Positions 1,527 through 57,999 of a stretch of 64,000 nt of DNA are shown piece by piece (positions within the stretch are counted from its first letter, which is position 1; each line of letters opens with the position of its first letter). Origin of the DNA: Escherichia coli (GTDB lineage: Bacteria; Pseudomonadota; Gammaproteobacteria; Enterobacterales; Enterobacteriaceae); the NCBI RefSeq assembly GCF_036507355.1, contig NZ_AP027877.1. One strand, written 5' to 3'. The position numbers were made by a program, and so were the translations under genes. Under the pieces are notes generated by a model that ran no database searches, was not told where the DNA came from, and saw only the letters and a list, made by a program, of their open reading frames with translations.

Positions 1527-1893
1527 GTCGACAGGGAGTCAGACAACGAAGTGAACATCAGGATGATGACACTTCTGAAGGACACACCAGGATGGTGTTT
1601 CAGGGAAAGGCTTCTGGATGAAGCGAAGAGGATGACGCAGGACGCGTTAAAGGACACCTCCAGGATGGAGAATGAGAACCGGTCAGGATGATTCGGTGGG
1701 TCAGGAAGGCCAGGGACACTTCAGGATGAAGTATCACATCGGGGTGGTGTGAGCAGGAAGCAATAGTTCAGGATGAACGATTGGCCGCAAGGCCAGAGGA
1801 AAAGTTGTCAAGGATGAGCAGGGAGCAACAAATGTAGCTGGAATGCTGCGAAACGAACCGGGAGCACTGTGAATACAGTGCTCCCTTTTTTTA
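1527..1893 (+). ncRNA. csrB: CsrB small RNA (CsrA-sequestering)
   Basis: About 370 nt with more than a dozen CAGGATG/AGGA motifs, no long ORF, ending in a GC hairpin (ggagcactgt...acagtgctcc) plus T-run at 1861-1893. Confidence 0.85.
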
Positions 1894-1937
1894 TTCCTGC
1901 TATCCTTCGCGGCAGTTTTTCTTATTGAGGTTGCTTT

Positions 1938-3950: not shown

Positions 3951-5303
3951 ATGAGTTCTTTAAGTCAGGCTGCGAGCCGTGTGGAAAAACGCACGAATGC
4001 TCGTTACTGGATAGTGGTGATGTTGTTTATCGTCACATCCTTCAACTACGGCGACCGCGCTACGCTTTCTATTGCCGGTTCGGAAATGGCCAAAGATATC
4101 GGCCTTGATCCCGTGGGAATGGGCTATGTGTTCTCTGCCTTCTCATGGGCTTATGTTATCGGGCAGATCCCTGGTGGTTGGTTGCTGGATCGTTTTGGTT
4201 CAAAACGCGTCTACTTCTGGTCGATCTTTATCTGGTCGATGTTTACCTTGCTGCAAGGCTTCGTCGATATCTTTAGTGGATTCGGCATTATCGTTGCCCT
4301 GTTTACTCTGCGCTTCCTGGTCGGGCTTGCTGAAGCGCCATCTTTCCCCGGCAACAGTCGCATTGTTGCGGCCTGGTTTCCGGCGCAGGAAAGGGGAACG
4401 GCGGTGTCGATTTTTAACTCCGCTCAATACTTCGCAACGGTGATCTTCGCGCCGATTATGGGCTGGCTGACGCATGAAGTGGGCTGGTCACACGTCTTCT
4501 TCTTTATGGGCGGTCTGGGCATTGTCATCAGCTTTATCTGGTTGAAAGTCATCCACGAGCCAAATCAATATCCGGGGGTAAATCAGAAAGAGCTGGAGTA
4601 CATCGCCGCGGGTGGCGCGCTGATCAATATGGATCAGTAAAACACCAAAGTTAAAGTGCCGTTCAGCGTGAAGTGGGGGCAGATCAAACAACTGCTCGGG
4701 TCACGGATGATGATCGGCGTTTATATTGGTCAGTACTGTATCAACGCCCTGACTTACTTTTTCATTACCTGGTTTCCGGTTTATCTGGTGCAGGTGCGTG
4801 GGATGTCGATTCTGAAAGCGGGCTTTGTGGCTTCCGTTCCGGCGGTTTGCGGTTTTATCGGCGGTGTGCTGGGTGGGATTATTTCCGACTGGCTGATGCG
4901 CCGCACGGGATCGCTGAACATTGCGCGTAAAACACCGATCGTAATGGGCATGTTGCTGTCGATGGTGATGGTGTTCTGCAACTACGTCAACGTTGAGTGG
5001 ATGATCATCGGCTTTATGGCGCTGGCCTTCTTCGGTAAGGGCATTGGGGCGCTGGGTTGGGCAGTAATGGCAGATACCGCACCAAAAGAGATCAGCGGTC
5101 TTTCCGGTGGCCTGTTCAACATGTTCGGTAACATTTCTGGCATCGTCACGCCAATCGCAATTGGTTATATCGTTGGCACGACTGGCTCCTTTAATGGGGC
5201 GCTGATTTATGTTGGTGTTCATGCCTTAATCGCGGTACTGAGCTACCTGGTGCTGGTGGGCGATATCAAGCGTATCGAGCTGAAACCTGTCGCGGGGCAA
5301 TAA
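3951..5303 (+). pseudogene. gudP: Glucarate/galactarate MFS transporter GudP, interrupted by one in-frame TAA at 4638-4640
   Basis: Track ORFs 3951-4640 and 4656-5303 are in the same frame and together give a full 12-TM MFS protein; only one stop codon separates them. Confidence 0.75.
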
Positions 5304-14695: not shown

Positions 14696-14712
14696 GGTTT
14701 GAGGAAAGGGTT

Positions 14713-15296: not shown

Positions 15297-15367
15297 GTGT
15301 TACTAACTCACTTCTATTCTGGTCACAGGTTTCCACCTGACAGACCCGCAATTTTCAGGACATTCTA

Positions 15368-16371: not shown

Positions 16372-18024
<1,653 letters not shown>

Positions 18025-18096
18025 GTAAAAAAGTTAGAACGGCAACGCGTACCCTGGGTACGCGTTGTTTGTCTGGAGTTTCAGTTTAACTAGTGA

Positions 18097-19410
<1,314 letters not shown>

Positions 19411-19430
19411 GACTGACTTAACGTCTTAAT

Positions 19431-19461
19431 AAAAAACCCGCTTCTTGAAGCGGGTTTTTTT
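19431..19461 (+). terminator. Rho-independent terminator after eno
   Basis: aaaaaacccgcttcttgaagcgggttttttt. Confidence 0.8.
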
Positions 19462-19465
19462 ATCT

Positions 19466-19828
19466 TCACATTTTGAGTTCAGTAAGCAGAGCGATAACAT
19501 TAATAAATGTTATTCCCACCAGGATAAGTATCCGAACAATTTTTCTGCTATTCCTTACATTGCTGACAAAATCATTATGAGAAATATTGGATGAATATTT
19601 TCGTTGATGGACTTTATAATCCCAAAGAAGATCATTTGCCTCAGGTATTGGGTTAATCAGACTGTAGATGCAAAAGTATACAAACGTATCTAAAGCAAGC
19701 AGTGATGTTATCAGTTGAAATAATTCATCGCCCTGGAAGGCTTTATTAAGCCAAATCATTCCAGCAGCACCGAATAAGCCAAATACAAATTTACTTAATC
19801 GCGGATGATTCGCTAAAATCTTACTCAT
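19466..19828 (-). CDS. Hypothetical small membrane protein (about 3 hydrophobic segments), AT-rich, no recognisable family
   Basis: 120-aa ORF in track; GC visibly below neighbours; function not inferable. Confidence 0.45.
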   Translation of the reverse strand: MSKILANHPRLSKFVFGLFGAAGMIWLNKAFQGDELFQLITSLLALDTFVYFCIYSLINPIPEANDLLWDYKVHQRKYSSNISHNDFVSNVRNSRKIVRILILVGITFINVIALLTELKM

Positions 19829-19863
19829 ATTTTCTTACCTTCCCTGTAATCTGTTTTTAAGTC

Positions 19864-20766
19864 TTACCATCTTCCTGACGCGCCGCCACCGCCGGATGAA
19901 CCGCCGCCACCGCTGAAATTGTCATTGTCGAAAGAGGATGAAGAGGAAGAAGACGATGACGAATGCCAGGAGGCCGAGTTGCTTCTTTCGTAGCGTGACG
20001 GTCGGTTTGCACTACGCATTGAATCACGCACCTTTCTGCCGAAAGGTGTGAAAGCGATAGCTACGACCAGGAATGGAGTGGCGAAACATAATAATGTGGC
20101 AAGAATTCCCCAGCTCCCGCTATATCCAGCGATGGGAAGTACAAAGGCCAGTATTATGGCAGCAAAGCAAATCACTCCCAGCGTTTTGATATATCCTCTG
20201 GCAGAAATAAACGTCAGTACTATCGCCCAGACTAACAGAGCCCACCAACCGCTAAAGGGTAAAGGATGATCGGGCGATGTATTATTGACTAAATCATTTC
20301 CTGATAGTCGGGTTTCAATATCACCAATACCTTGTTGCAAGCCGACAGCAAGGTCGCCCTTTTTAAACGCTGGAATAATACTGTTGCGTATAATTTGCCC
20401 GGACTGCGCATCCGTCAGAATACCCTCAAGTCCGTAGCCAATTTCAATATGTACTGTATGATCTTGCTAGGCAACTACCAGTAAAATACCGTCATCAAGA
20501 TTCTTATGACCGGGCTGCCAACGCTCGAATACCCGCGTTGCGTACTGCTCGATGGTTTCGTCGCCTGTTGTATCAACCACTAACACGACCAACTGTGCGT
20601 GTTTTTTTTGTGTCAGGGCTTTAATCTGGTTGGTCAGGGTGTTTACTTCGCTGTTTGTTAATGTGCCGGTTAAGTCATTCACATACTTGGGTGATTCAGG
20701 TACTGGAATTTGTGTGGCAAACACAGATGAACAGAAGAAAGCCGTAAGGAAGATAAAATTTCGCAT
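19864..20766 (-). pseudogene. ygcG: TPM-domain protein YgcG homolog, interrupted by one in-frame TAG at 20467-20469
   Basis: Track ORFs 20467-20796 and 19864-20340 share a frame; translation through the stop continues the TPM domain (…LLVVA*QDHTVHIEIGYGLEG…); signal peptide start MRNFIF, Gly/Ser-rich C-tail. Confidence 0.7.
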
Positions 20767-20779
20767 AGAACTTCCCCGC

Positions 20780-21400
20780 TTAATGAGCATTAGCATTCTG
20801 GCTAAAATCTATTGTTGGGGCTTTACTTACTGCGGCGACATCATCCGGCAAATAATTTTTCTTTGGTGTGTAATCCATGACCTTTGCGGTTAATACAGCG
20901 GGGAATTTGCGGATAGTGACATTATATTGTTCAATGGCTTTAATATATCTTCCTCGCGCAACGGCAATTCTATTCTCACTTCCTTCGAGCTGTACCATTA
21001 AGTTTTGATAGAGCTCTTGAGCCTTTAACTCAGGGTAACGCTCACTAATTATCGTTAACTGACCGAGAGTGCGAGTCACCTGCGCCTGGGCCTGTTGCCA
21101 GGCTTGTAATTTTTGTGCATCTCCGGGAGCTTGCTGAAGATCGCTGCTGGCGCGATTAGCCTGGCTACGAGCCAATGTTACGGCTTCCAAAACGTCTTTT
21201 TCATGGTTGGAATAACCTTTAATACTGGCGACAAGATTAGGAATAAGATCGGCGCGACGTTGATATTGATTTAATACCTCAGACCAGGAGGCGTTAACCT
21301 GCTCATCATAGGTTTGAATATCGTTATATCCACAGCCTGATAAATTGAAAATAAATATAATTAAGATGAATATCCTGAGCATGTTTAAATCCTTTTTCAT
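20780..21400 (-). CDS. LemA family protein, probable lipoprotein (alternative start 21382, MLRIF…LSGC lipobox)
   Basis: 206-aa ORF; stop 14 bp upstream of the ygcG start, so the two look co-transcribed; low GC. Confidence 0.7.
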   Translation of the reverse strand: MKKDLNMLRIFILIIFIFNLSGCGYNDIQTYDEQVNASWSEVLNQYQRRADLIPNLVASIKGYSNHEKDVLEAVTLARSQANRASSDLQQAPGDAQKLQAWQQAQAQVTRTLGQLTIISERYPELKAQELYQNLMVQLEGSENRIAVARGRYIKAIEQYNVTIRKFPAVLTAKVMDYTPKKNYLPDDVAAVSKAPTIDFSQNANAH

Positions 21401-37956: not shown

Positions 37957-38219
37957 ATATTGCCGGATAAATTAAACGCCTCTGTCAGAAATGATGGGGG
38001 CGTTTTTATTTTGCGAGCAGCATTCCTGATTTTAAACGTGAACGCCGCTGGAAGAATTATCAGGTATAGAATGGCGTCGGGTGCTTGAGGCTGTCTGGCG
38101 TTAAGCATTCGCGAGGTTCCAGATGGACAAAAGCCCCAGGCGATATTTCTATCAACCTGAGGCTCGCGTTCGAACGTAGCAATTCGGATGTTAGTCTCTT
38201 CTTTGCAGGGAGGCAAGAC

Positions 38220-38372
38220 ATGCTAACAAAATATGCCCTTGTGGCAATCATAGTACTGTGTTGTACAGTACTGGGATTCACGCTCATGGTAGGCGACTCG
38301 TTATGTGAGTTGAATATCAGAGAGCGTGGTATGGAGTTTAAGGCAGTTCTCGCTTACGAATCGAAGAAGTAG
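38220..38372 (+). CDS. Hok/Gef-family type I toxin (50 aa)
   Basis: [50 protein letters not shown]: single TM segment then the SLCE..IR…AYES.K signature; AGGGAGG RBS 7 nt upstream. Confidence 0.75.
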
Positions 38373-38761
38373 CCACCACGTGGGGGTAAAACCCCGCGTA
38401 TTGAATTGTGATGGTTTGGTCTCCTGCACCCTTTTTTAAATTTATATTTTTTATGTGAATATATTGTCTCTATTTATTATTATGAATTTCAAATGAAAAT
38501 CATAAATTTATTCACAATATAAATGTTTTATTGGCTGATATATATCACAGATAATTTTTAAAATATGCGTAAATATCCTTTAAGTTTACTGAAGGATAAA
38601 AATATTGTGACTTTCTTTGATTTCTGGGGAAAAACCCGACGCGACGAGAAAGAAGGGGGTGACGACTATCACCTTCTTTGCTGGCATTCGCTGGATGTGG
38701 CCGCGATGGGCTATTTAATGGTTAAAAGAAATTGCTTCGGGCTGGCGGTAATGACTCCAAC

Positions 38762-39265
38762 TTATTGATAGTGTTTTATGTTCAGATAATGCCCGATGAC
38801 TTTGTCATGCAGCTCCACCGATTTTGAGAACGACAGCGACTTCCGTCCCAGCCGTGCCAGGTGCTGCCTCAGATTCAGGTTATGCCGCTCAATTCGCTGC
38901 GTATATCGCTTGCTGATTACGTGCAGCTTTCCCTTCAGGCGGGATTCATACAGCGGCCAGCCATCCGTCATCCATATCACCACGTCAAAGGGTGACAGCA
39001 GGCTCATAAGACGCCCCAGCGTCGCCATCGTGCGTTCACCGAATACGTGCGCAACAACCGTCTTCCGGAGCCTGTCATACGCGTAAAACAGCCAGCGCTG
39101 GCGCGATTTAGCCCCGACATAGCCCCACTGTTCGTCCATTTCCGCGCAGACGATGACGTCACTGCCCGGCTGTATGCGCGAGGTTACCGACTGCGGCCTG
39201 AGTTTTTTAAGTGACGTAAAATCGTGTTGAGGCCAACGCCCATAATGCGGGCTGTTGCCCGGCAT
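38762..39265 (-). CDS. insB: IS1 InsB (expressed as InsAB' by a -1 frameshift)
   Basis: 167-aa ORF overlapping insA in the -1 frame. Confidence 0.9.
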
Positions 39266-39459
39266 CCAACGCCATTCATGGCCATATCAATGATTTTCTG
39301 GTGCGTACCGGGTTGAGAAGCGGTGTAAGTGAACTGCAGTTGCCATGTTTTACGGCAGTGAGAGCAGAGATAGCGCTGATGTCCGGCGGTGCTTTTGCCG
39401 TTACGCACCACCCCGTCAGTAGCTGAACAGGAGGGACAGCTGATAGAAACAGAAGCCAC
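39184..39459 (-). CDS. insA: IS1 InsA
   Basis: 91-aa [26 protein letters not shown]…. Confidence 0.9.
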
Positions 39460-41451
39460 TGGAGCACCTCAAAAACACCATCATACACTAAATCAGTAAG
39501 TTGGCAGCATCACCCGGGCTGGCTGATTATTTTCGTCAATTAGGGATTTCTGACAAGGAACAGGCGGCTCAATTTTTCGCCTGGTTGTTGTGCTGGCACG
39601 ATATTGGAAAATTTGCCCGCTCATTTCAGCAACTTTACCTGCACCCACAACTCAAGGTTCCGGAAGGCGCAAGAAAGAATTACGAAAAGATCTCTCATTC
39701 AACGCTGGGCTACTGGTTGTGGCATCATTATTTAAGTGAATGCGAAGAATTGCTTCCTGCCTCTTCACTCTCTACTCGCAAACTTAAACGTGTAATAGCG
39801 ATGTGGATGCCCATGACTACCGGGCATCATGGTCGGCCCCCTGACCGTATTGATGAACTGGATAATTTTCTGCCTGAAGACAAAGTTGCCGCGCGAGATT
39901 TTCTCCTTGAAATCAAGGCACTGTGTCCGCTCATAGAGATTCCCACATTCTGGGATAATGACGAGGGAGTTGAACTTTTAAAACAACTTTCCTGGTATAT
40001 CTCTGCAACAGTCGTACTTGCAGACTGGACGGGTTCGTCAACGCGATTTTTTCCACGCGTCGCACACCCAATGGATATTAAAGATTACTGGCAGAAAACT
40101 TTAGTTCAGGCTCAAAACGCCTTAACCGTCTTTCCTCCAAAAGCAGAAACCGCACCTTTCACCGGAATTAATACGCTGTTTCCTTTTATTGAGCACCCGA
40201 CACCATTACAGCAAAAGGTGCTGGATCTGGATATCAGCCAGCCAGGGCCACAGTTATTTATTCTGGAAGACGTGACTGGCGCAGGTAAAACAGAAGCGGC
40301 GCTTATCCTGGCGCACAGGTTGATGGCTGCGAGGAAAGCACAGGGTTTGTTTTTTGGCCTGCCAACAATGGCAACGGCCAATGCCATGTACGATCGGCTG
40401 GTCAAAACCTGGCTTGCTTTCTATTCGCCAGAGTCCCGCCCCAGCCTGGTGCTGGCACACAGTGCCCGCACATTAATGGACCGCTTTAATGAATCACTCT
40501 GGTCCGGTGATTTAGTCGGGTCAGAAGAACCGGATGAACAAGCGTTCAGTCAAGGATGTGCAGCCTGGTTTGCCGACAGTAACAAGAAGGCTTTACTGGC
40601 TGAAATTGGCGTCGGCACGCTGGATCAGGCGATGATGGCGGTGATGCCGTTCAAACATAATAATCTGCGGCTTCTGGGGCTGAGTAACAAAATCCTGCTG
40701 GCTGATGAGATCCACGCCTGTGACGCTTACATGTCATGCATTCTTGAAGGGCTGATCGAGCGGCAGGCGCGTGGTGGAAACAGCGTCATTTTGCTTTCTG
40801 CTACGTTATCCCAACAGCAGCGCGACAAACTCGTCGCCGCCTTTGCGCGTGGCACAGAGGGCCAGCAAGAAGCTCCGTTCCTTGAAAAGGATGATTACCC
40901 CTGGCTGACGCATGTCACGAAATCCGATGTGAACTCACACCGGGTAGCGACGCGCAAAGACGTTGAGCGTAGCGTCAGCGTGGGTTGGCTTCATAGTGAA
41001 CAAGAGAGTATTGCGCGTATCGAATCGGCGGTAAGTCAGGGAAAATGCATCGCCTGGATCCGCAATTCTGTCGATGACGCTATTAAGGTTCATCGTCAGC
41101 TGCTTGCCCGCGGCGTCATTCCCGCTTCCAGCCTTTCACTCTTTCATAGCCGCTTTGCTTTTAGCGATCGCCAGCGAATCGAAACGGAAACGCTGGCACG
41201 CTTTGGTAAAAATTGTAATTTAAAAAGATCATCGCAAGTCATTGTTTGTACACAAGTAATTGAGCAAAGTGTGGATATTGACCTGGACGAAATGATCTCC
41301 GACCTTGCCCCCATTGATTTGCTGATCCAGCGAGCGGGGCGATTACAGCGACATATCCGCGATATTAATGGTCAGTTAAAGCGTGACGGAAAAGACGAGC
41401 GTTCCCCTCCTGAATTGCTGATTCTGGCCCCCGTCTGGGACGACGCTCCTG

Positions 41452-41781
41452 GTGACGAATGGTTCGGCAGTGCCATGCGTACGCGCCTTTACAGAGGCCG
41501 CGCTTAAAGTCTCACCAACCGGAAAACAAAACAGCTTTGCCAGCCGTGCCTACGCCTCCTGGGCGCTGGCGGAAAAAGGCACTGTTCAACCGCGTTCTCT
41601 GGCGGCGGCTTTCTATGAACCCATTAATGGTACCCGTCAGTTAGATGTGGCGGTGCAGCGTATTACAACGCTTCGCGAAAACATGAATACGGTCTACGAA
41701 CAGAAGACTGAATGCGCAAGTTTTGACGTGATGAACAAACAGGGAAGCATGAAGGACGTACTGGACTTTATCTGCGCGTAA
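41452..41781 (+). pseudogene. 3' remnant of a cas gene, most plausibly the end of cas7/casC fused out of frame to cas3
   Basis: 109-aa frame ending 10 bp before the cas5 ATG, the position casC occupies in an intact I-E operon; the alternative reading is a frameshifted cas3 tail. Confidence 0.4.
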
Positions 41782-41791
41782 GGGGCGGCTT

Positions 41792-42973
<1,182 letters not shown>

Positions 42974-43069
42974 GTTATGTGTTCTTTAAAAATAAGGAAA
43001 TGTTTGAATTTAGTTGGTAGATTGTTGATGTGGAATAAATTTGTTTAAAAACAGATATGTATGCTTAGT

Positions 43070-43281
43070 GTGTTCCCGGCGCCAGCGGGGATAAACCGAC
43101 GAGGGGCTCGTTATTCGGGAAATTACAAAAGTGTTCCCCGCGCCAGCGGGGATAAACCGGCCCAGGGATTTGTTCAATCCAGCGTGCCGCTGTGTTCCCC
43201 GCATCAGCGGGGATAAACCGGGCGCACTGGATGCGATGATGGATATCACTTAGAATTCCCCGCCCCTGCGGTAGAACTCCC
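43070..43281 (+). CRISPR. Type I-E CRISPR array next to cas2: 3 repeats GTGTTCCC(C/G)GCGCCAGCGGGGATAAACCG plus a degenerate terminal repeat, 3 spacers of 32 bp
   Basis: Repeats at 43070, 43131 and 43192, degenerate repeat at 43253; 61-bp period; AT-rich leader at 42974-43069. Confidence 0.95.
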
Positions 43282-43301
43282 AGCTCCCATTTTCAAACCC
43301 A

Positions 43302-44339
43302 TCAAGACGCCTTCGCCAACTCTTTCACCAGAGGTAGCATTATCCGCATAACGTCACGGCAGCGACGTTCTATTCTTCCAGGAAGTGCCTTATCAATATG
43401 CTGTTGATTATCCAGTCTTACGTCATGCCAGCTATTTCCCGCAGGGAATGCGGCTGTTTTTGCGCGTTGCTGATAACCATCCTTATTCCCAAGATTCCAG
43501 TTAGTCGCTTCCACCGAAAGTACAGCAATGCCCGCTTTGTCGAATATTTCTGCGTCATTACAACACCCAGTGCCTTTCGGATAATTTTTATTCAAACCCG
43601 GATTGGTCGTTGCGGCAATTCCATGACTACGCGCAATTGCCAGCGCCCTGTCGCGCGTTAATTTCCTTACTGCTTCAGGTGTTTTTACGCCACTGTTGAA
43701 ATACAGCTTATCGCCAACGATCAGATTATCGAGATTAATCACCAATAAAGTATTTTTCTTTTCGGTATCACTCATGCGCTTGAGGAAATTCTCAGCGCCT
43801 AATTTCCCTTCTTCTTCGCCACTGGTTGCTACAAAACGAATGCCATATTCGGTTGGCGTATTTTTCAGGCGTTCTGCCAGCTCCAGCATGACACCTAAAC
43901 CTGCGGCATTATCATCCATTCCTTGTAACGTCAGCCCGCCGAGATTGGCATCTGCATCTGCGTCGCTCTGCGGGGCATAGGTATCCAGATGCGCCATAAT
44001 AATGATCTGCTGCGGCGCTTTGCCTTCATGAGCGGCAATCACCGTACTTCCCGTCACGTTGTGCCAGTTTTTGCGGTTATCGCGGGCGGTATAAATATAT
44101 CGGCTATTAAACGTACGAATATCACTGCGGTAACCCATTTGCTGAAACTGTTGCCGAATATAATCGGCAGATAACATTTCTGCAGGAGTTCCGGTCATGC
44201 GTCCCGGAAAGAAAGTGGCAATATGTCGCGCCTGTGTATTGGCAAAATCGCCAGGTTTAGGTGACGAGGCGTGTACGGGGAGAATAAAGCATACGCCGAG
44301 CGCCAGGGCAGCGGTACGGTGGCGCAATGCGGAAAACAT
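43302..44339 (-). CDS. iap: Alkaline phosphatase isozyme conversion aminopeptidase
   Basis: 345-aa ORF with signal peptide. Confidence 0.85.
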   Translation of the reverse strand: MFSALRHRTAALALGVCFILPVHASSPKPGDFANTQARHIATFFPGRMTGTPAEMLSADYIRQQFQQMGYRSDIRTFNSRYIYTARDNRKNWHNVTGSTVIAAHEGKAPQQIIIMAHLDTYAPQSDADADANLGGLTLQGMDDNAAGLGVMLELAERLKNTPTEYGIRFVATSGEEEGKLGAENFLKRMSDTEKKNTLLVINLDNLIVGDKLYFNSGVKTPEAVRKLTRDRALAIARSHGIAATTNPGLNKNYPKGTGCCNDAEIFDKAGIAVLSVEATNWNLGNKDGYQQRAKTAAFPAGNSWHDVRLDNQQHIDKALPGRIERRCRDVMRIMLPLVKELAKAS

Positions 44340-44590
44340 AGTGAGTCCTTAAATACCATGCAAATTTTTTTACCGCCATAGTATGAAACTGCCGCTGCGC
44401 TAAAACAATTTCAAATCTTCCTAAACGCCCGAAATCCGGTGCCTTAAGCACTTTTTGATATTAGCTTTGCCAAATCGTTATTCCGTTAAGGAACTACTCA
44501 TTCTAATTGGTAATTTCATTCGTTCTCTTACGCTCCCTATAGTCGAAACATCTGATGGCAAGAAAATAGCGGTATTGCAAAGGAACGGTT

Positions 44591-45499
44591 ATGGATCAAA
44601 TACGACTTACTCACCTGCGGCAACTGGAGGCGGAAAGCATCCACATTATTCGCGAGGTGGCGGCAGAATTCTCAAATCCGGTGATGCTCTACTCTATCGG
44701 TAAAGATTCCAGCGTCATGCTGCATCTGGCGCGCAAGGCGTTTTATCCAGGTACGCTGCCTTTCCCGTTGCTGCATGTCGATACCGGCTGGAAATTCCGC
44801 GAGATGTATGAGTTCCGCGATCGTACGGCGAAAGCCTACGGCTGCGAGCTGCTGGTGCATAAAAACCCGGAAGGCGTGGCGATGGGGATTAATCCATTCG
44901 TGCACGGCAGCGCGAAACATACCGATATTATGAAGACCGAAGGCCTGAAGCAGGCGCTGAATAAATACGGTTTTGATGCCGCCTTCGGTGGTGCGCGCCG
45001 CGACGAAGAGAAATCCCGTGCTAAAGAGCGTATCTACTCTTTCCGTGATCGCTTCCATCGCTGGGACCCGAAAAATCAGCGCCCGGAGCTGTGGCACAAC
45101 TATAACGGGCAGATTAACAAAGGCGAAAGCATCCGCGTTTTCCCGCTCTCTAACTGGACCGAGCAGGATATCTGGCAATACATCTGGCTGGAAAATATCG
45201 ACATTGTTCCGTTGTATCTCGCTGCGGAACGTCCGGTTCTGGAACGCGACGGTATGTTGATGATGATTGATGACAACCGTATCGACCTGCAACCGGGCGA
45301 AGTGATTAAAAAACGGATGGTGCGTTTCCGTACGCTGGGCTGCTGGCCGCTGACCGGTGCGGTGGAGTCAAATGCACAAACGCTGCCGGAGATCATCGAA
45401 GAGATGCTGGTTTCCACCACCAGTGAACGTCAGGGGCGCGTGATTGACCGCGACCAGGCTGGTTCTATGGAGCTGAAAAAACGTCAGGGGTATTTTTAA
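44591..45499 (+). CDS. cysD: Sulfate adenylyltransferase subunit 2
   Basis: 302-aa ORF. Confidence 0.95.
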
Positions 45500-45500
45500 G

Positions 45501-46928
45501 ATGAACACCGCACTTGCACAACAAATCGCCAATGAAGGCGGCGTCGAAGCCTGGATGATTGCGCAACAACATAAAAGCCTGCTGCGTTTTCTGACCTGTG
45601 GTAGCGTCGATGACGGCAAAAGTACCCTGATTGGTCGTCTGCTGCACGATACCCGCCAAATCTATGAAGATCAGCTCTCATCGCTGCATAACGACAGCAA
45701 ACGACACGGTACCCAGGGCGAGAAACTGGATTTGGCGTTGCTGGTGGATGGCCTGCAAGCTGAACGCGAACAGGGTATTACTATCGACGTGGCTTACCGT
45801 TATTTCTCTACCGAGAAGCGTAAATTTATTATCGCCGACACCCCCGGGCACGAGCAGTATACCCGCAATATGGCGACCGGCGCCTCAACGTGTGAGCTGG
45901 CGATCTTATTGATCGACGCCCGTAAAGGCGTGCTCGATCAAACCCGTCGTCACAGTTTTATCTCCACGCTGCTGGGGATCAAACATCTGGTCGTAGCGAT
46001 CAACAAAATGGATCTGGTGGATTACAGTGAAGAGACATTCACCCGCATTCGTGAAGACTACCTGACTTTCGCCGAACAGTTACCTGGCAATCTGGATATT
46101 CGCTTTGTGCCGCTCTCTGCGCTGGAAGGCGACAACGTGGCTTCGCAAAGTGAAAGTATGCCGTGGTACAGCGGTCCGACACTGCTCGAAGTGCTGGAAA
46201 CCGTGGAGATCCAGCGAGTGGTGGATGTCCAGCCAATGCGCTTCCCGGTGCAGTACGTTAACCGCCCAAATCTCGATTTTCGTGGCTACGCCGGAACGCT
46301 GGCATCCGGTCGCGTGGAAGTCGGGCAACGTGTAAAAGTGCTGCCCTCTGGTGTGGAATCAAACGTCGCGCGGATCGTGACTTTTGATGGCGATCGCGAA
46401 GAAGCCTTTGCCGGAGAAGCGATCACCTTGGTGCTGACGGATGAGATCGATATCAGCCGTGGTGATCTGCTGCTGGCGGCAGACGAAGCGTTACCAGCTG
46501 TGCAGAGCGCGTCGGTGGATGTGGTATGGATGGCGGAACAGCCGCTTTCCCCGGGCCAGAGTTATGACATCAAAATTGCCGGTAAGAAGACGCGTGCTCG
46601 TGTTGATGGCATTCGTTATCAGGTTGATATTAATAACCTTACCCAACGCGAAGTTGAAAACCTGCCGCTGAACGGCATCGGCTTGGTGGATCTCACTTTT
46701 GACGAGCCACTGGTGTTAGATCGTTATCAGCAAAACCCGGTTACCGGTGGGCTGATTTTTATCGATCGCCTGAGCAATGTGACCGTAGGTGCCGGTATGG
46801 TGCATGAGCCAGTTAGCCAGGCAACTGCTGCGCCATCTGAATTTAGTGCATTCGAACTGGAATTGAATGCCCTGGTTCGCCGCCACTTTCCACACTGGGG
46901 CGCGCGCGATTTGCTGGGGGATAAATAA
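45501..46928 (+). CDS. cysN: Sulfate adenylyltransferase subunit 1 (GTPase)
   Basis: 475-aa ORF with GTP-binding motifs. Confidence 0.95.
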
Positions 46929-47533
46929 TGGCGCTGCATGACGAAAACGTCGTCTGGCATAGCCATCCGGTCACTGTGCAACAACGCGAGCTACACCACG
47001 GTCATCGTGGTGTAGTGCTGTGGTTTACCGGCCTCTCCGGGTCCGGTAAATCAACGGTCGCCGGGGCGCTGGAGGAGGCGTTACATAAACTCGGCGTCAG
47101 TACGTATCTGCTGGATGGCGATAATGTTCGCCACGGATTATGCAGCGATCTCGGTTTTAGCGATGCCGATCGTAAAGAGAATATCCGTCGCGTCGGTGAA
47201 GTGGCGAATTTGATGGTTGAAGCCGGACTGGTGGTGCTGACCGCATTTATCTCGCCACACCGCGCCGAACGCCAGATGGTTCGCGAACGCGTAGGAGAAG
47301 GGCGCTTTATCGAAGTGTTTGTCGATACGCCGCTGGCGATTTGCGAAGCCCGCGATCCAAAAGGCTTATATAAGAAAGCGCGTGCCGGTGAACTGCGCAA
47401 CTTTACGGGAATAGATTCCGTTTACGAAGCGCCTGAATCGGCAGAAATTCATCTCAATGGTGAACAATTAGTAACAAATTTGGTACAGCAATTATTAGAT
47501 CTGTTGAGACAGAACGATATTATCAGATCCTGA
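46928..47533 (+). CDS. cysC: Adenylyl-sulfate kinase
   Basis: 201-aa ORF with P-loop GLSGSGKST. Confidence 0.95.
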
Positions 47534-47582
47534 GACACCACCGGGTTTCCATGCCCGGTTCGTCAAAGTAACAGGATCAAAT

Positions 47583-47906
47583 ATGCGTAATAGCCATAAC
47601 ATTACACTAACAAATAACGACAGCCTTACTGAGGATGAAGAAACCACATGGTCACTGCCTGGTGCCGTGGTCGGTTTTATCTCCTGGTTATTTGCGCTGG
47701 CGATGCCGATGTTGATTTATGGCTCTAACACGCTGTTCTTCTTTATCTACACCTGGCCTTTCTTTCTTGCGCTGATGCCCGTCGCGGTAGTGGTGGGGAT
47801 TGCGCTGCATTCATTGATGGACGGAAAGCTACGCTACAGTATTGTTTTCACCCTGATGACAGTAGGCATTATGTTTGGCGCACTGTTTATGTGGCTACTG
47901 GGCTAA
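47583..47906 (+). CDS. ygbE: Inner membrane protein YgbE
   Basis: 107-aa hydrophobic ORF. Confidence 0.8.
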   Translation: MRNSHNITLTNNDSLTEDEETTWSLPGAVVGFISWLFALAMPMLIYGSNTLFFFIYTWPFFLALMPVAVVVGIALHSLMDGKLRYSIVFTLMTVGIMFGALFMWLLG

Positions 47907-48099
47907 TTTGTACTTTCCCGTCTCCTCTGTTCATAATTCAAACCGTAACTAATAATGAGATTATGTTCTGCACGCCCTGGGTATACGTAACAATGGACAA
48001 ATGTGGTACATTTGCCCGCGTTGTCGCGGTATCCCCAACAGAGGATGTAGAGTCGTCTTCGGATGCATGGGATGATGATGCCGTTTTTCAGGGGGCAGG

Positions 48100-48411
48100 A
48101 TGGGTAAACTAACGCTGCTGTTGCTGGCTATTCTGGTCTGGCTACAGTATTCGCTGTGGTTCGGTAAGAACGGTATACATGACTATACCCGCGTCAATGA
48201 TGATGTGGCGGCACAGCAAGCTACAAACGCGAAACTTAAAGCGCGAAACGATCAACTTTTTGCCGAAATTGACGATCTCAATGGCGGCCAGGAGGCGCTC
48301 GAAGAGCGTGCGCGTAATGAACTCAGCATGACCAGGCCGGGCGAAACGTTTTATCGTCTGGTGCCTGACGCGTCGAAGCGCGCACAGTCTGCGGGGCAAA
48401 ACAATCGATAA
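48100..48411 (+). CDS. ftsB: Cell division protein FtsB
   Basis: 103-aa ORF with TM segment and coiled coil. Confidence 0.9.
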
Positions 48412-48429
48412 ATCAGCCCGGGAATTAAC

Positions 48430-49140
48430 ATGGCAACCACTCATTTGGATGTTTGCGCCGTGGTTCCGGCGGCCGGATTTGGCCGTCGAATGCAAACGGA
48501 ATGTCCTAAGCAATATCTCTCAATCGGTAATCAAACCATTCTTGAACACTCGGTGCATGCGCTGCTGGCGCATCCCCGGGTGAAACGTGTCGTCATTGCC
48601 ATAAGTCCTGGCGATAGCCGTTTTGCACAACTTCCTCTGGCGAATCATCCGCAAATCACCGTTGTAGATGGCGGTGATGAGCGTGCCGATTCCGTGCTGG
48701 CAGGTTTGAAAGCCGCTGGCGACGCGCAGTGGGTATTGGTGCATGACGCCGCTCGTCCTTGTCTGCATCAGGATGACCTCGCGCGATTGTTGGCGTTGAG
48801 CGAAACCAGCCGCACGGGAGGGATCCTAGCCGCACCAGTGCGCGATACTATGAAACGTGCCGAACCGGGCAAAAATGCCATTGCTCATACCGTTGATCGC
48901 AACGGCTTATGGCACGCGCTGACGCCGCAATTTTTCCCTCGTGAGCTGTTACATGACTGTCTGACGCGCGCTCTAAATGAAGGCGCGACTATTACCGACG
49001 AAGCCTCGGCGCTGGAATATTGCGGATTCCATCCTCAGTTGGTCGAAGGCCGTGCGGATAACATTAAAGTCACGCGCCCGGAGGATTTGGCACTGGCCGA
49101 GTTTTACCTCACCCGAACCATCCATCAGGAGAATACATAA
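48430..49140 (+). CDS. ispD: 2-C-methyl-D-erythritol 4-phosphate cytidylyltransferase
   Basis: 236-aa ORF. Confidence 0.95.
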
Positions 49141-49619
49141 TGCGAATTGGACACGGTTTTGACGTACACGCCTTTGGCGGTGAAGGCCCAATTATCATTG
49201 GTGGCGTACGCATTCCTTACGAAAAAGGATTGCTGGCGCATTCTGATGGCGACGTGGCGCTCCATGCGTTGACCGATGCATTGCTTGGCGCGGCGGCGCT
49301 GGGGGATATCGGCAAGCTGTTCCCGGATACCGATCCGGCATTTAAAGGTGCCGATAGCCGCGAGCTGCTACGCGAAGCCTGGCGTCGTATTCAGGCGAAG
49401 GGTTATACCCTTGGCAACGTCGATGTCACTATCATCGCTCAGGCACCGAAGATGTTGCCGCACATTCCACAAATGCGCGTGTTTATTGCCGAAGATCTCG
49501 GCTGCCATATGGATGATGTTAACGTGAAAGCCACTACTACGGAAAAACTTGGATTTACCGGACGTGGGGAAGGGATTGCCTGTGAAGCGGTGGCGCTACT
49601 CATTAAGGCAACAAAATGA
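49140..49619 (+). CDS. ispF: 2-C-methyl-D-erythritol 2,4-cyclodiphosphate synthase
   Basis: 159-aa ORF; TAATG overlap with ispD. Confidence 0.95.
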
Positions 49620-50645
49620 TTGAGTTTGATAATCTCACTTACCTCCACGGTAAACCGCAAGGCACCGGGCTGCTGAAAGCCAATCCGGAAGACTTTGTGG
49701 TGGTGGAAGATTTGGGCTTTGAGCCTGATGGTGAAGGTGAGCATATTCTGGTTAGAATCCTCAAAAACGGCTGCAATACCCGTTTTGTGGCGGATGCACT
49801 GGCGAAATTCCTGAAAATTCATGCCCGTGAAGTCAGCTTTGCTGGGCAAAAAGACAAACATGCTGTTACAGAACAGTGGTTATGCGCTCGCGTGCCGGGC
49901 AAGGAAATGCCCGATCTGAGCGCCTTTCAACTGGAAGGCTGCCAGGTGCTGGAGTATGCGCGGCACAAGCGCAAGCTGCGTTTAGGGGCGCTGAAAGGTA
50001 ACGCCTTTACCCTGGTTCTGCGCGAAGTGAGCAATCGCGATGACGTTGAACAACGTCTGATCGATATTTGCGTAAAAGGTGTACCGAACTACTTCGGTGC
50101 CCAACGTTTTGGGATTGGCGGTAGCAACTTGCAGGGCGCGCTGCGCTGGGCGCAAACCAATACTCCGGTGCGCGATCGCAATAAACGGAGTTTTTGGTTG
50201 TCGGCAGCCCGCAGTGCGTTGTTTAATCAGATTGTTGCTGAGCGCCTCAAAAAAGCAGACGTTAATCAAGTTGTTGACGGCGATGCGCTACAATTAGCCG
50301 GACGTGGTAGCTGGTTTGTCGCAACCACCGAAGAACTGGCGGAATTACAGCGTCGCGTCAACGATAAAGAGCTGATGATAACCGCCGCATTGCCGGGCAG
50401 TGGCGAATGGGGAACTCAGCGTGAAGCGCTGGCATTCGAACAAGCAGCTGTCGCCGCAGAAACTGAATTACAAGCTTTACTGGTGCGCGAAAAAGTTGAA
50501 GCCGCGCGCAGAGCGATGCTGCTGTATCCGCAACAATTAAGCTGGAACTGGTGGGATGACGTCACCGTAGAGATCCGTTTCTGGCTTCCGGCGGGTAGTT
50601 TTGCAACCAGCGTTGTCAGGGAACTTATCAACACAACAGGTGATT

Positions 50646-50665
<20 letters not shown>
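49616..50665 (+). CDS. truD: tRNA pseudouridine(13) synthase TruD
   Basis: 349-aa ORF. Confidence 0.9.
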
Positions 50666-52027
<1,362 letters not shown>

Positions 52028-52166
52028 AACGTGAGGAAATACCTGGATTTTTCCTGGTTATTTTGCCGCAGGTCAGCGTATCGTGAACATCTTTTCCAGT
52101 GTTCAGTATGGTGCCCTGCACGGTAATTATGTCACTGGTTATTAACCAATTTTTCCTGGGGGATAA

Positions 52167-53306
52167 ATGAGCGCGGGAAGCCCAAAATTCACCGTTCGCC
52201 GCATTGCGGCTTTGTCACTGGTTTCGCTATGGCTGGCAGGCTGTTCTGACACTTCAAATCCACCGGCACCGGTCAGTTCCGTCAATGGCAATGCGCCTGC
52301 AAATACCAATTCTGGTATGTTGATTACGCCGCCGCCGAAAATGGGGACGACGTCTACAGCGCAGCAACCGCAAATTCAGCCGGTACAGCAGCCACAAATT
52401 CAGGCTACTCAACAACCGCAAATCCAGCCAGTGCAGCCAGTAGCTCAGCAGCCGGTACAGATGGAAAACGGACGCATCGTCTATAACCGTCAGTATGGGA
52501 ACATTCCGAAAGGCAGTTATAGCGGCAGTACATACACCGTGAAAAAAGGCGACACACTTTTCTATATCGCCTGGATTACTGGCAACGATTTCCGTGACCT
52601 TGCTCAGCGCAACAATATTCAGGCACCATACGCGCTGAACGTTGGTCAGACCTTACAGGTGGGGAATGCTTCCGGTACGCCAATCACTGGCGGAAATGCC
52701 ATTACCCAGGCCGACGCAGCAGAGCAAGGAGTTGTGATCAAGCCTGCACAAAATTCCACCGTTGCTGTTGCGTCGCAACCGACAATTACGTATTCTGAGT
52801 CTTCGGGTGAACAGAGTGCTAACAAAATGTTGCCGAACAACAAGCCAACTGCGACCACGGTCACAGCGCCTGTAACGGTACCAACAGCAAGCACAACCGA
52901 GCCGACTGTCAGCAGTACATCAACCAGTACGCCTATCTCCACCTGGCGCTGGCCGACTGAGGGCAAAGTGATCGAAACCTTTGGCGCTTCTGAGGGGGGC
53001 AACAAGGGGATTGATATCGCAGGCAGCAAAGGACAGGCAATTATCGCGACCGCAGATGGCCGCGTTGTTTATGCTGGTAACGCGCTGCGCGGCTACGGTA
53101 ATCTGATTATCATCAAACATAATGATGATTACCTGAGTGCCTACGCCCATAACGACACAATGCTGGTCCGGGAACAACAAGAAGTGAAGGCGGGGCAAAA
53201 AATAGCAACCATGGGTAGCACCGGAACCAGTTCAACACGCTTGCATTTTGAAATTCGTTACAAGGGGAAATCCGTAAACCCGCTGCGTTATTTGCCGCAG
53301 CGATAA
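52167..53306 (+). CDS. nlpD: Murein hydrolase activator lipoprotein NlpD (LysM and M23 domains); rpoS promoters are known to lie within it
   Basis: 379-aa ORF with lipobox LAGC and Q/P-rich tandem repeats. Confidence 0.9.
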
Positions 53307-53368
53307 ATCGGCGGAACCAGGCTTTTGCTTGAATGTTCCGTCAAGGGATCACGGGTAGGAGCCACCTT

Positions 53369-54361
53369 ATGAGTCAGAATACGCTGAAAGTTCATGATTT
53401 AAATGAAGATGCGGAATTTGATGAGAACGGAGTTGAGGTTTTTGACGAAAAGGCCTTAGTAGAAGAGGAACCCAGTGATAACGATTTGGCCGAAGAGGAA
53501 CTGTTATCGCAGGGAGCCACACAGCGTGTGTTGGACGCGACTCAGCTTTACCTTGGTGAGATTGGTTATTCACCACTGTTAACGGCCGAAGAAGAAGTTT
53601 ATTTTGCGCGTCGCGCACTGCGTGGAGATGTCGCCTCTCGCCGCCGGATGATCGAGAGTAACTTGCGTCTGGTGGTAAAAATTGCCCGCCGTTATGGCAA
53701 TCGTGGTCTGGCGTTGCTGGACCTTATCGAAGAGGGCAACCTGGGGCTGATCCGCGCGGTAGAGAAGTTTGACCCGGAACGTGGTTTCCGCTTCTCAACA
53801 TACGCAACCTGGTGGATTCGCCAGACGATTGAACGGGCGATTATGAACCAAACCCGTACTATTCGTTTGCCGATTCACATCGTAAAGGAGCTGAACGTTT
53901 ACCTGCGAACCGCACGTGAGTTGTCCCATAAGCTGGACCATGAACCAAGTGCGGAAGAGATCGCAGAGCAACTGGATAAGCCAGTTGATGACGTCAGCCG
54001 TATGCTTCGTCTTAACGAGCGCATTACCTCGGTAGACACCCCGCTGGGTGGTGATTCCGAAAAAGCGTTGCTGGACATCCTGGCCGATGAAAAAGAGAAC
54101 GGTCCGGAAGATACCACGCAAGATGACGATATGAAGCAGAGCATCGTCAAATGGCTGTTCGAGCTGAACGCCAAACAGCGTGAAGTACTGGCACGTCGAT
54201 TCGGTTTGCTGGGGTACGAAGCGGCAACACTGGAAGATGTAGGTCGTGAAATTGGCCTCACCCGTGAACGTGTTCGCCAGATTCAGGTTGAAGGCCTGCG
54301 CCGTTTGCGCGAAATCCTGCAAACGCAGGGGCTGAATATCGAAGCGCTGTTCCGCGAATAA
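53369..54361 (+). CDS. rpoS: RNA polymerase sigma factor RpoS (codon 33 is GAG, intact)
   Basis: 330-aa product starting [14 protein letters not shown] inside the longer track ORF. Confidence 0.95.
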
Positions 54362-54378
54362 GTAAGCATCTGTCAGAA

Positions 54379-54412
54379 AGGCCAGTCTCAAGCGAGGCTG
54401 GCCTTTTTCTTT
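54379..54412 (+). terminator. Rho-independent terminator after rpoS
   Basis: aaggccagtctcaagcgaggctggcctttttcttttg. Confidence 0.8.
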
Positions 54413-54480
54413 TGTTTGGGAAGCTTGTGTTTTTGTCGCCTGGATAAGACACGTCAGCGTCCTACCCGGCAATTTGCATC

Positions 54481-54888
54481 CTATGTGTTCATCATCTTGC
54501 GCACCAGCTGCACAAACAGCTCCTGCTCTTCTGCACTCAAACGCCCCAAAAATTCCTCATCCACGCTGTCACCAATCGGTATCGCCGCAGCAAGTATCTT
54601 TTCTCCTTCGGCAGTCAGCCAGACAAAGCGACGCCGCTTGTCAGCGGCATCATGTTCACGTCTGACTAAGCCACGATTCTCCATTCTTGCCAACATTTCT
54701 GCCAACGTTGCTTTGGTGCTGACTGCTGCTTCTATCAGTGCCACCTGTTCGATACCAGGCTTATCAGCAATGGCGCGCATCACCGCATACTGTGGTTTGG
54801 TCAGGTCAGGTAACTCGTGCTGCCAGCGAGCCGTGTGCTGCTGAAAAAGCTGTCGTAACTGATGGAACGCTTTATTTCGTAACGCCAT
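54481..54888 (-). CDS. MarR/SlyA-family transcriptional regulator, divergent from the decarboxylase operon
   Basis: 135-aa ORF with winged-helix region. Confidence 0.8.
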   Translation of the reverse strand: MALRNKAFHQLRQLFQQHTARWQHELPDLTKPQYAVMRAIADKPGIEQVALIEAAVSTKATLAEMLARMENRGLVRREHDAADKRRRFVWLTAEGEKILAAAIPIGDSVDEEFLGRLSAEEQELFVQLVRKMMNT

Positions 54889-55003
54889 GTAAACTCCGGG
54901 CTAATTCTCTGTCGCTATCATAGCGGTTTTTTAGTGACGAAGAAGATGTTGTTACTTTTCAATCCTTGCCGCTGTGGAAATGAAGGAGTATGTTAATAAT
55001 AAC

Positions 55004-55017
55004 GTTCGTATACGAAC
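55004..55017. promoter_or_regulatory. Perfect 14-bp palindrome GTTCGTATACGAAC, candidate MarR operator
   Basis: Read directly; 18 bp upstream of the ecdB ATG in the divergent intergenic region. Confidence 0.4.
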
Positions 55018-55034
55018 AATTAAGAGAATAAGCA

Positions 55035-55628
55035 ATGAAACTGATCGTCGGGATGACAGGGGCTACCGGTGCGCCTCTTGGTGTGGCATTACTGCAAGCG
55101 CTGCGGGAGATGCCGAATGTCGAGACTCATCTGGTGATGTCGAAGTGGGCGAAAACCACCATTGAACTGGAAACGCCTTACAGCGCCCGCGATGTTGCTG
55201 CCCTCGCTGACTTCAGCCATAACCCGGCGGATCAGGCGGCGACCATCTCCTCAGGTTCCTTTCGTACCGACGGCATGATCGTTATTCCGTGCAGTATGAA
55301 AACGCTCGCCGGTATCCGCGCTGGTTACGCCGATGGCCTGGTAGGGCGCGCGGCGGACGTCGTGCTCAAAGAAGGCCGCAAACTGGTGCTGGTGCCGCGT
55401 GAAATGCCGCTTAGCACCATCCATCTCGAAAATATGCTCGCACTTTCACGCATGGGCGTGGCGATGGTGCCGCCGATGCCTGCCTTTTATAACCATCCCG
55501 AAACGGTAGATGACATTGTCCACCATGTAGTAGCCCGCGTGCTGGATCAATTTGGCCTCGAACATCCCCACGCCAGGCGCTGGCAAGGATTGCCGCAGGC
55601 CCGGAATTTTTCTCAGGAGAATGAATAA
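55035..55628 (+). CDS. ecdB: UbiX-like flavin prenyltransferase (Pad1/EcdB)
   Basis: 197-aa ORF MKLIVGMTGATGAPLG…. Confidence 0.85.
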   Translation: MKLIVGMTGATGAPLGVALLQALREMPNVETHLVMSKWAKTTIELETPYSARDVAALADFSHNPADQAATISSGSFRTDGMIVIPCSMKTLAGIRAGYADGLVGRAADVVLKEGRKLVLVPREMPLSTIHLENMLALSRMGVAMVPPMPAFYNHPETVDDIVHHVVARVLDQFGLEHPHARRWQGLPQARNFSQENE

Positions 55629-57055
55629 TGGCATTTGATGATTTACGCAGCTTTTTACAGGCGCTTGATGACCACGGCCAGTTACTGAAAATCAGCGAAG
55701 AGGTGAACGCGGAACCGGATCTGGCAGCAGCAGCTAACGCCACCGGGCGTATCGGTGACGGCGCGCCCGCGCTGTGGTTTGATAATATTCGCGGCTTTAC
55801 CGATGCCCGCGTGGCAATGAACACCATCGGTTCCTGGCAGAACCACGCGATTTCCCTCGGCCTGTCGCCAAACACCCCGGTCAAAAAGCAGATTGATGAG
55901 TTTATCCGCCGCTGGGATAACTTCCCGATTGCCCCGGAGCGCCGCGCCAATCCAGCCTGGGCGCAGAACACCGTCGATGGCGACGAGATCAACCTGTTCG
56001 ATATCCTGCCGCTGTTTCGTTTAAACGATGGCGATGGCGGTTTCTATCTCGACAAAGCGTGCGTGGTTTCCCGCGATCCGCTCGACCCGGATAACTTCGG
56101 CAAGCAGAACGTCGGCATCTACCGCATGGAAGTGAAGGGCAAGCGTAAGCTCGGCCTGCAACCGGTGCCGATGCACGATATCGCCCTGCATCTGCATAAA
56201 GCGGAAGAGCGCGGTGAAGATCTGCCGATTGCGATCACGCTCGGTAACGATCCGATCATCACGCTGATGGGGGCCACGCCGCTGAAATACGAACAGTCTG
56301 AGTATGAAATGGCAGGTGCGCTGCGTGAAAGCCCGTACCCGATCGCCACCGCCCCGCTGACCGGTTTTGATGTGCCGTGGGGTTCAGAAGTGATCCTCGA
56401 AGGGGTCATCGAAAGCCGTAAACGCGAAATCGAAGGGCCGTTCGGTGAGTTTACCGGACACTACTCCGGCGGGCGTAACATGACCGTGGTGCGCATCGAT
56501 AAAGTCTCTTACCGCACCAGGCCGATTTTCGAATCGCTGTACCTCGGCATGCCGTGGACCGAAATCGACTACCTGATGGGGCCAGCCACCTGTGTGCCGC
56601 TGTATCAGCAACTTAAAGCCGAGTTCCCGGAAGTACAGGCGGTGAACGCCATGTACAACCACGGCCTGCTGGCGATTATCTCCACCAAAAAACGCTACGG
56701 CGGCTTTGCCCGCGCGGTGGGCCTGCGTGCGATGACCACGCCGCACGGTCTGGGCTACGTAAAGATGGTGATTATGGTCGATGAAGACGTTGACCCGTTC
56801 AACCTGCCGCAGGTGATGTGGGCGCTCTCCTCGAAAGTAAATCCGGCAGGGGATTTGGTGCAGTTGCCGAATATGTCCGTGCTGGAACTCGACCCTGGCT
56901 CAAGCCCGGCGGGGATCACCGACAAGCTGATTATCGACGCCACCACGCCTGTCGCCCCGGACAACCGTGGTCACTACAGCCAGCCGGTGGTGGATTTGCC
57001 GGAAACCAAAGCCTGGGCTGAAAAACTGACCGCTATGCTGGCCGCACGTAAATAA
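55628..57055 (+). CDS. ecdC: UbiD-family (prFMN-dependent) decarboxylase (YclC/EcdC)
   Basis: 475-aa ORF; TAATG overlap with ecdB. Confidence 0.85.
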   Translation: MAFDDLRSFLQALDDHGQLLKISEEVNAEPDLAAAANATGRIGDGAPALWFDNIRGFTDARVAMNTIGSWQNHAISLGLSPNTPVKKQIDEFIRRWDNFPIAPERRANPAWAQNTVDGDEINLFDILPLFRLNDGDGGFYLDKACVVSRDPLDPDNFGKQNVGIYRMEVKGKRKLGLQPVPMHDIALHLHKAEERGEDLPIAITLGNDPIITLMGATPLKYEQSEYEMAGALRESPYPIATAPLTGFDVPWGSEVILEGVIESRKREIEGPFGEFTGHYSGGRNMTVVRIDKVSYRTRPIFESLYLGMPWTEIDYLMGPATCVPLYQQLKAEFPEVQAVNAMYNHGLLAIISTKKRYGGFARAVGLRAMTTPHGLGYVKMVIMVDEDVDPFNLPQVMWALSSKVNPAGDLVQLPNMSVLELDPGSSPAGITDKLIIDATTPVAPDNRGHYSQPVVDLPETKAWAEKLTAMLAARK

Positions 57056-57065
57056 GGAGAACAAG

Positions 57066-57302
57066 ATGATTTGTCCACGTTGTGCCGATGAACAGATTGA
57101 AGTGATGGCGAAATCGCCGGTGAAAGATGTCTGGACGGTATATCAGTGCCAGCATTGCCTTTATACCTGGCGCGATACCGAACCGCTACGTCGCATCAGC
57201 CGCGAACATTATCCCGAAGCGTTCCGCATGACGCAGAAAGATATTGATGACGCGCCAATGGTGCCGAGCATTCCGCCGCTGCTGGCGGCAGATAAGCGCT
57301 AA
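57066..57302 (+). CDS. ecdD: Small zinc-ribbon subunit of the decarboxylase (BsdD/VdcD-like, EcdD)
   Basis: 78-aa ORF with CPRC…CQHC. Confidence 0.75.
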   Translation: MICPRCADEQIEVMAKSPVKDVWTVYQCQHCLYTWRDTEPLRRISREHYPEAFRMTQKDIDDAPMVPSIPPLLAADKR

Positions 57303-57310
57303 TAAAAAGT

Positions 57311-57338
57311 GCCGGGTAGTGGCTTTGCTTTACCCGGC
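57311..57338. terminator. Hairpin between the convergent ecdD and pphB
   Basis: gccgggta…tacccggc stem. Confidence 0.5.
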
Positions 57339-57342
57339 CTCA

Positions 57343-57999
57343 TTACTTTATTTTATAAAATGACAGCCGCCCGCTTTTCGGCGATCCGGTATCAATATAA
57401 ATCTGGTTAGCGAACGTCTGAATGTTATCAAGCATCATATGTCCAAATATAAAATAATCAGCGCCGTTTATTTGTTGTAACTCGCCATTAAGAGATTTCT
57501 GCACACGATCAACAGGCCAAAGTAATTCGCTCTCCGCTATTTGTTTGCCAAAGAGATATTCATTGCCCGGATAATCCGCATGTGCGATGACATATTTTAT
57601 AATGTCGTTGGTAATTTCAATAATATGTGGAAGTTGATGAAATTTCAGCAATAGACCTATAGCTTCTTTTTGTTCCATATCATTTAACTCAAAGAACCAG
57701 TCACCACCGCTGGCAAGCCACATATTGCCATCGCCGGTCGCGAACGCATCCAGCGCCATTGCTTCGTGGTTGCCTTTAACGGAGATAAACCAGGGCTGGT
57801 TTAGCAGGCGCAGGACGTCAAGACTCTCCGGCCCACGATCAATATTATCGCCGACAGAAATAAGTAAGTCGGTTTCGGGGAAAAAAGAGAGTTGATGTAA
57901 GCGGGATTGTAATAACTGATATTCACCATGAATATCACCAACGACCCATATATGGCGATAGTGATGGGCATTGATTTTTTGATAGCGTGTAGATGGCAT
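57343..57999 (-). CDS. pphB: Serine/threonine protein phosphatase 2 (PphB/PrpB)
   Basis: 218-aa ORF with metallophosphatase motifs GDIHG and GNHE. Confidence 0.9.
   Translation of the reverse strand: MPSTRYQKINAHHYRHIWVVGDIHGEYQLLQSRLHQLSFFPETDLLISVGDNIDRGPESLDVLRLLNQPWFISVKGNHEAMALDAFATGDGNMWLASGGDWFFELNDMEQKEAIGLLLKFHQLPHIIEITNDIIKYVIAHADYPGNEYLFGKQIAESELLWPVDRVQKSLNGELQQINGADYFIFGHMMLDNIQTFANQIYIDTGSPKSGRLSFYKIK

Follow-up and report, generated by a model that had tools for sequence, protein, structure and literature searches.

The rpoS gene in the window, by which we mean the whole 64,000-nucleotide stretch of Escherichia coli DNA analysed here (contig NZ_AP027877.1), is very probably an ordinary natural-isolate allele that carries glutamate at codon 33, lies on a chromosome of a non-K-12 E. 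coli/Shigella type and encodes a complete sigma S protein of 330 residues. A full-length Glu33 rpoS is already known and is ordinary.

The rpoS reading frame and its start

The gene occupies 53369..54361 on the plus strand, from an ATG to a TAA stop codon at 54359..54361, and these 993 nt translate into 330 sense codons with no internal stops. Codon 33, at 53465..53467 (+), reads GAG (Glu) and is embedded in the segment L30, V31, E32, E33, E34, P35. A sequence-only reading of the same DNA had placed GAG at precisely these coordinates within an uninterrupted frame of 330 codons, and the direct read and the translation bear out both statements. That reading had also named alignment to reference rpoS alleles as a means of checking it. 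Against MG1655 the alignment is gap-free, with 330 codons in both genes, 990 of the 993 nucleotides identical and three different. Only one of the three alters the protein: nucleotide 97 is C in MG1655 (CAG, Q33) and G in the window (E33). The other two, in codons 273 and 330, are synonymous. Natural E. coli alleles are closer still, and the 993-nt coding sequence is 100% identical to that of many isolates with GAG at codon 33, including O157:H7 TR01.

The number of this codon would be wrong if translation actually began at an in-frame ATG at 53333, which opens a 342-residue ORF that is present in the mechanical ORF list. We see practically no chance that this is the true start. The coding sequence annotated by RefSeq is 993 nt long and, in the matching genomes listed, spans the same stretch as the gene described here; the MG1655 gene likewise has 993 nt, and its gap-free alignment to the window also supports a start at 53369. 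Position 1 of the NCBIfam RpoS equivalog model pairs with residue 1 of the 330-residue form, and the RpoS sequences deposited in the PDB begin with MSQNT or MGQNT. In addition, the ATG at 53369 is preceded at a distance of 7 nt by a putative Shine–Dalgarno sequence, AGGAG (53357..53361, +), which is the same in K-12; nothing comparable was noted upstream of 53333. Three ORFs antisense to rpoS (53367..53618, 53795..54472 and 53899..54261, all on the minus strand) were taken to arise mechanically from the balanced GC content of the coding region.

Identity of the sigma S protein

The product of the 330-codon frame matches the RpoS equivalog model NF004207 (NCBIfam) over its full length (positions 1–329 of 329) with 604.6 bits, where the cut-off is 394, and it matches TIGR02394 with 480.7 bits against a cut-off of 378.7. 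The Pfam sigma-70 regions follow one another in the order 1.2, 2, 3 and 4, all above their cut-offs: region 1.2 at residues 56–88 (PF00140), region 2 at residues 94–163 (PF04542), region 3 at residues 174–248 (PF04539) and region 4 at residues 262–315 (PF04545). Residue 33 precedes all four regions, the first of which begins at residue 56, and belongs to the acidic N-terminal part of the protein. The gene is also found in the surE–pcm–nlpD–rpoS context: the window is colinear with K-12 over 43130..54407, where pcm, nlpD and rpoS ORFs were found (names as in the K-12 annotation).

Codon 33 across E. coli genomes

The state of codon 33 in the species was surveyed with a 61-mer centred on rpoS nucleotide 97, in each of its base variants, against 5,426 complete E. 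coli genomes. The GAG form is found exactly in 4,821 of the 5,414 genomes that have a match, and these are natural isolates of all kinds; GAG is the majority or default state at this position, with a share of about 89% or more among complete genomes. The CAG form is found exactly in 173 genomes (MG1655, BW25113, DH10B, MC4100 and BW2952 among them) and the TAG form in 121 (among them W3110, EMG2, WG1, J53, NCM3722, HMS174 and S17-1). Nearly all of the matches listed for these two forms (60 of the 173 CAG and 60 of the 121 TAG genomes) are either laboratory derivatives of K-12 by name or genomes of K-12 size. One of the TAG genomes, BLR(DE3), derives from a B strain, and its amber codon was presumably acquired by transduction with K-12 DNA from near recA.

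These counts agree with the sequence-only reading on two further points, that some K-12 lineages carry an amber or glutamine codon at this position and that the window has the wild-type residue, in the sense that GAG is the state of natural isolates. The literature is in accord: PMC2700278, citing Atlung (2002) and Subbarayan and Sarkar (2004), describes K-12 strains as varying between an amber codon and Glu, Tyr or Gln, and describes GAG, on the strength of the same two studies, as frequent among natural non-K-12 isolates. The study itself found GAG in all of the VTEC strains that it examined.

The allele in the window is neither of the two K-12 variants, TAG or CAG. The amber allele of W3110, EMG2, WG1 and J53 shares the gene and the flanking 61-mer with the window, but its codon 33 is a stop, whereas in the window this codon is a sense codon and the frame stays open. 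We take this amber allele to be the one named rpoS396(Am) in strain catalogues. The history of the codon in K-12 may have comprised two steps, from GAG to TAG (amber) and then from TAG to CAG (Gln, a pseudo-reversion), each of which would require one base change at the same nucleotide. This path is suggested because the oldest K-12 stocks (EMG2 and WG1) carry TAG and MG1655-type strains carry CAG. No part of it would apply to rpoS in the window.

A separate question is whether the Glu33 and Gln33 proteins are equivalent. Sigma S with Glu33 might be measurably different from, and lower than, the Q33 form of MG1655 in activity or stability, and PMC6892915 does propose this residue as the reason why the RpoS i-modulon is less active in BL21(DE3), HS and Crooks than in MG1655. 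That link is a correlation across unrelated strains rather than the outcome of an allele exchange, and we give it little weight. Against such a difference are the normal catalase activity of VTEC strains with GAG (PMC2700278), the predominance of E33 among complete genomes and the position of residue 33 ahead of the first conserved region that Pfam matches. Both residues also occur in RpoS sequences deposited in the PDB, E33 in 5ipl and 18 other entries and Q33 in 6kj6. We take these entries to be RNA polymerase holoenzyme complexes, which would imply that the E33 and Q33 forms both assemble. Lower activity or stability of the E33 protein is therefore quite improbable in our judgment, and we would put no higher the broader idea that the natural Glu33 protein differs functionally from the Gln33 form, for example through an effect of the acidic N-terminal segment on stability or promoter use. 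Were E33 to differ, most of the knowledge gained with MG1655-type K-12 strains would be slightly off for RpoS output in natural lineages such as that of the window. In practical terms, the state of codon 33 can serve as a quick marker, and here it marks the sequence as not being that of a K-12 laboratory derivative.

Promoter, leader and terminator

The sequences expected to govern rpoS expression lie largely within nlpD (52167..53306, +), which hosts the rpoS promoter and leader and encodes 379 residues, the same length as in K-12 with no amino-acid differences. The putative main promoter, rpoSp (52768..52796, +), consists of TTGCGT and TATTCT separated by a spacer of 17 nt and is identical to that of MG1655. 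Its position inside nlpD was assigned from the known K-12 promoter; a simple promoter consensus scan did not flag it. The 5′ leader would extend over about 567 nt (52802..53368, +), through the nlpD coding sequence and the nlpD–rpoS spacer, and it contains two A-rich Hfq-binding motifs whose role is known from K-12, (AAN)4 at 53173..53184 (+) and A6 at 53197..53202 (+). The extent of the leader, the roles of the Hfq motifs and the assignment of the last ~140 nt to sRNA pairing and the inhibitory stem are presumed here to be as established in K-12.

Counted from the rpoS ATG, the stretch between −620 and −1 differs from MG1655 at only two sites, 53186 (−183) and 53207 (−162). Each change is silent in nlpD, and neither falls within an A-rich motif: the first follows (AAN)4 by 2 nt and the second follows A6 by 5 nt. 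An 81-mer carrying the two variants is found exactly in 4,279 of 5,417 genomes, so the window has the majority natural haplotype and K-12 the minority one. K-12 and the window have exactly the same final 140 nt of leader, where the ribosome-binding site and the region of sRNA pairing and the inhibitory stem are located.

Downstream of the gene, a terminator scan identified a predicted intrinsic terminator at 54375..54408 (+), a hairpin of 15 pairs (7 of them G-C) followed by a T-run with the tail CTTTTGTTTG. In an Rfam scan of the whole window, CsrB and a sok-like RNA were the sole matches, and neither overlaps rpoS.

Expected activity of sigma S

With a promoter region, leader, ribosome-binding site and terminator that are either identical to those of K-12 or of the majority haplotype, rpoS would be expected to be normally expressed and regulated and to yield an active sigma S. 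The sequence-only reading had gone further and held that the general stress response should be intact. That expectation is reasonable only within the limits of what can be seen, namely rpoS itself with its promoter region, leader and terminator, plus the full-length relA, barA and csrB of the window. The level and activity of RpoS also depend on RssB, ClpXP, Hfq, the small RNAs DsrA, RprA and ArcZ, Crl, and iraP, iraM and iraD. An intact stress response is something that we infer, because RssB, ClpXP, Hfq, DsrA, RprA, ArcZ, Crl and the Ira factors are encoded outside the window and because single missense changes or defects in trans can abolish activity with the frame untouched. A change at residue 128 of RpoS provides an example of activity lost without a change of frame (PMC5405132).

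An intact rpoS could thus coexist with a stress response attenuated through factors encoded elsewhere, such as a defect in Hfq, in the activating sRNAs or in Crl, or an over-active RssB/ClpXP. Two features of the window lend this idea some credence. Pseudogenization is scattered across it (IS1 in cas3, two cas deletions, gudP Q230*, an absent ygcW and a truncated ygcU), and the lineage is unusual, as no complete E. coli genome exceeds 99.3% identity over 19.4 kb. All of the stress and regulatory genes that are visible (rpoS, nlpD, relA, barA, csrB and mutS) are nevertheless full length, and nothing in the window is direct evidence of a defect in the RpoS pathway. We therefore consider attenuation unlikely, though less so than a functional difference between the E33 and Q33 proteins, and favor a functional sigma S acting in an otherwise normal response. 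The matter is of very little consequence. Laboratory stocks often carry rpoS mutations, as do some clinical isolates, and with no obvious lesion in the gene, the stress-resistance phenotypes of this strain would be expected to be RpoS-proficient unless there is a defect elsewhere in the genome.

The rpoS–mutS spacer

Homology to K-12 stops at 54407, directly after the rpoS terminator, and the variable rpoS–mutS spacer starts there. Over the next ~2.9 kb (54408..57343) the comparison with MG1655 found no K-12 homology. This segment encodes a MarR-family regulator (54481..54888, −; Pfam MarR) and three subunits of a non-oxidative hydroxyarylic acid decarboxylase, B (55035..55628), C (55628..57055) and D (57066..57302), which are named after the RefSeq annotation of genomes that match. 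Besides MarR, Pfam recognizes a Flavoprotein domain in the spacer. Beyond the segment lie pphB and then mutS. In K-12, ygbN to ygbI sit where the window has the cassette of MarR regulator and decarboxylase.

Of the 5,426 complete E. coli genomes, 801 carry this spacer variant over its full length, at a best identity of 98.4%. PMC4209514, citing LeClerc et al. (1999), describes a 2.9-kb form of the mutS–rpoS region in O157:H7 and Shigella dysenteriae. The spacer is a known polymorphic region, and the window has its O157:H7/S. dysenteriae-type 2.9-kb form. O157:H7 has the same type of spacer downstream of rpoS (MarR regulator, decarboxylase BCD, pphB and mutS), but the flanks of the window are not those of O157:H7: the best match is 98.4% for the spacer and 99.3% for the 19.4-kb upstream block.

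Lineage of the window

The blocks that flank the spacer in the window are 92–99% identical to MG1655. Membership of the K-12 lineage would entail ygbI–ygbN at the spacer and near-identity to MG1655; the window shows neither, and on this comparison we conclude that the window is not part of a K-12 genome. The K-12-specific polymorphism at codon 33 was therefore never to be expected here, and the comparison with K-12 at that position is largely beside the point.

The nearest of the 5,426 complete RefSeq E. coli genomes is 99.3% identical over positions 1–19400 of the window (19.4 kb), and over 37001–62000 the best complete E. coli match is 96.5% identical and in 7 pieces. These values indicate an unusual lineage that appears to have no representative among the 5,426 complete genomes. 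An exact-protein look-up did locate a near-identical locus in GCA_905398585.1, on contig CAJPYR010000008.1, with 1 mismatch in 7,428 nt. A Shigella origin may be suspected on account of the IS1, the gene decay, the O157:H7/S. dysenteriae-type spacer and the lack of a close match among the E. coli genomes.

Two further departures from K-12 lie upstream. At 19419..21348, a 1.9-kb replacement carries a LemA-family ORF (20780..21400, −) and a second ORF in the place where K-12 has ygcG and yqcG. At 26455, the window lacks a 1.25-kb segment of K-12 that holds ygcW and the beginning of ygcU, and a ygcU remnant of 376 aa is left.

Gene decay and neighboring loci

The type I-E CRISPR–Cas locus between cysH and iap (38565..43220) has decayed through an IS1 insertion and two deletions. 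The cas3 gene is split by an IS1 of 768 bp (38747..39514, −) flanked by a 9-bp target duplication, CGGGCTGGC. The deletions were defined against the intact locus of E. coli ETEC1748. The first, with its junction at 41481/41482, has removed the 3′ end of cas3, casA, casB and most of cas7e; a 30-nt probe across this cas3/cas7e junction had no match in the collection of species-representative genomes. The second, with its junction near 41877, has taken out cas6e entirely, together with most of cas5e and the 5′ end of cas1. The cas2 gene is intact (42680..42973), and the CRISPR array has only three repeats, at 43070, 43131 and 43192.

A hok/sok-type toxin–antisense locus (38079..38372) adjoins cysH, with an Rfam sok match of 105 bits and a Hok/Gef-family ORF at 38205..38372. 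At this position by cysH, K-12 has only the sokX RNA annotated. The glucarate/galactarate transporter gene gudP (3951..5303) carries a premature stop, Q230*, with TAA at 4638..4640 in place of the CAA of K-12, and now consists of two ORFs, one of 229 and one of 215 aa. Elsewhere in the window, the CsrB small RNA is full length (1536..1895; Rfam 384 bits, model positions 1–356 of 356), and barA (8239..10995, 918 aa) and relA (12401..14635, 744 aa) are intact.
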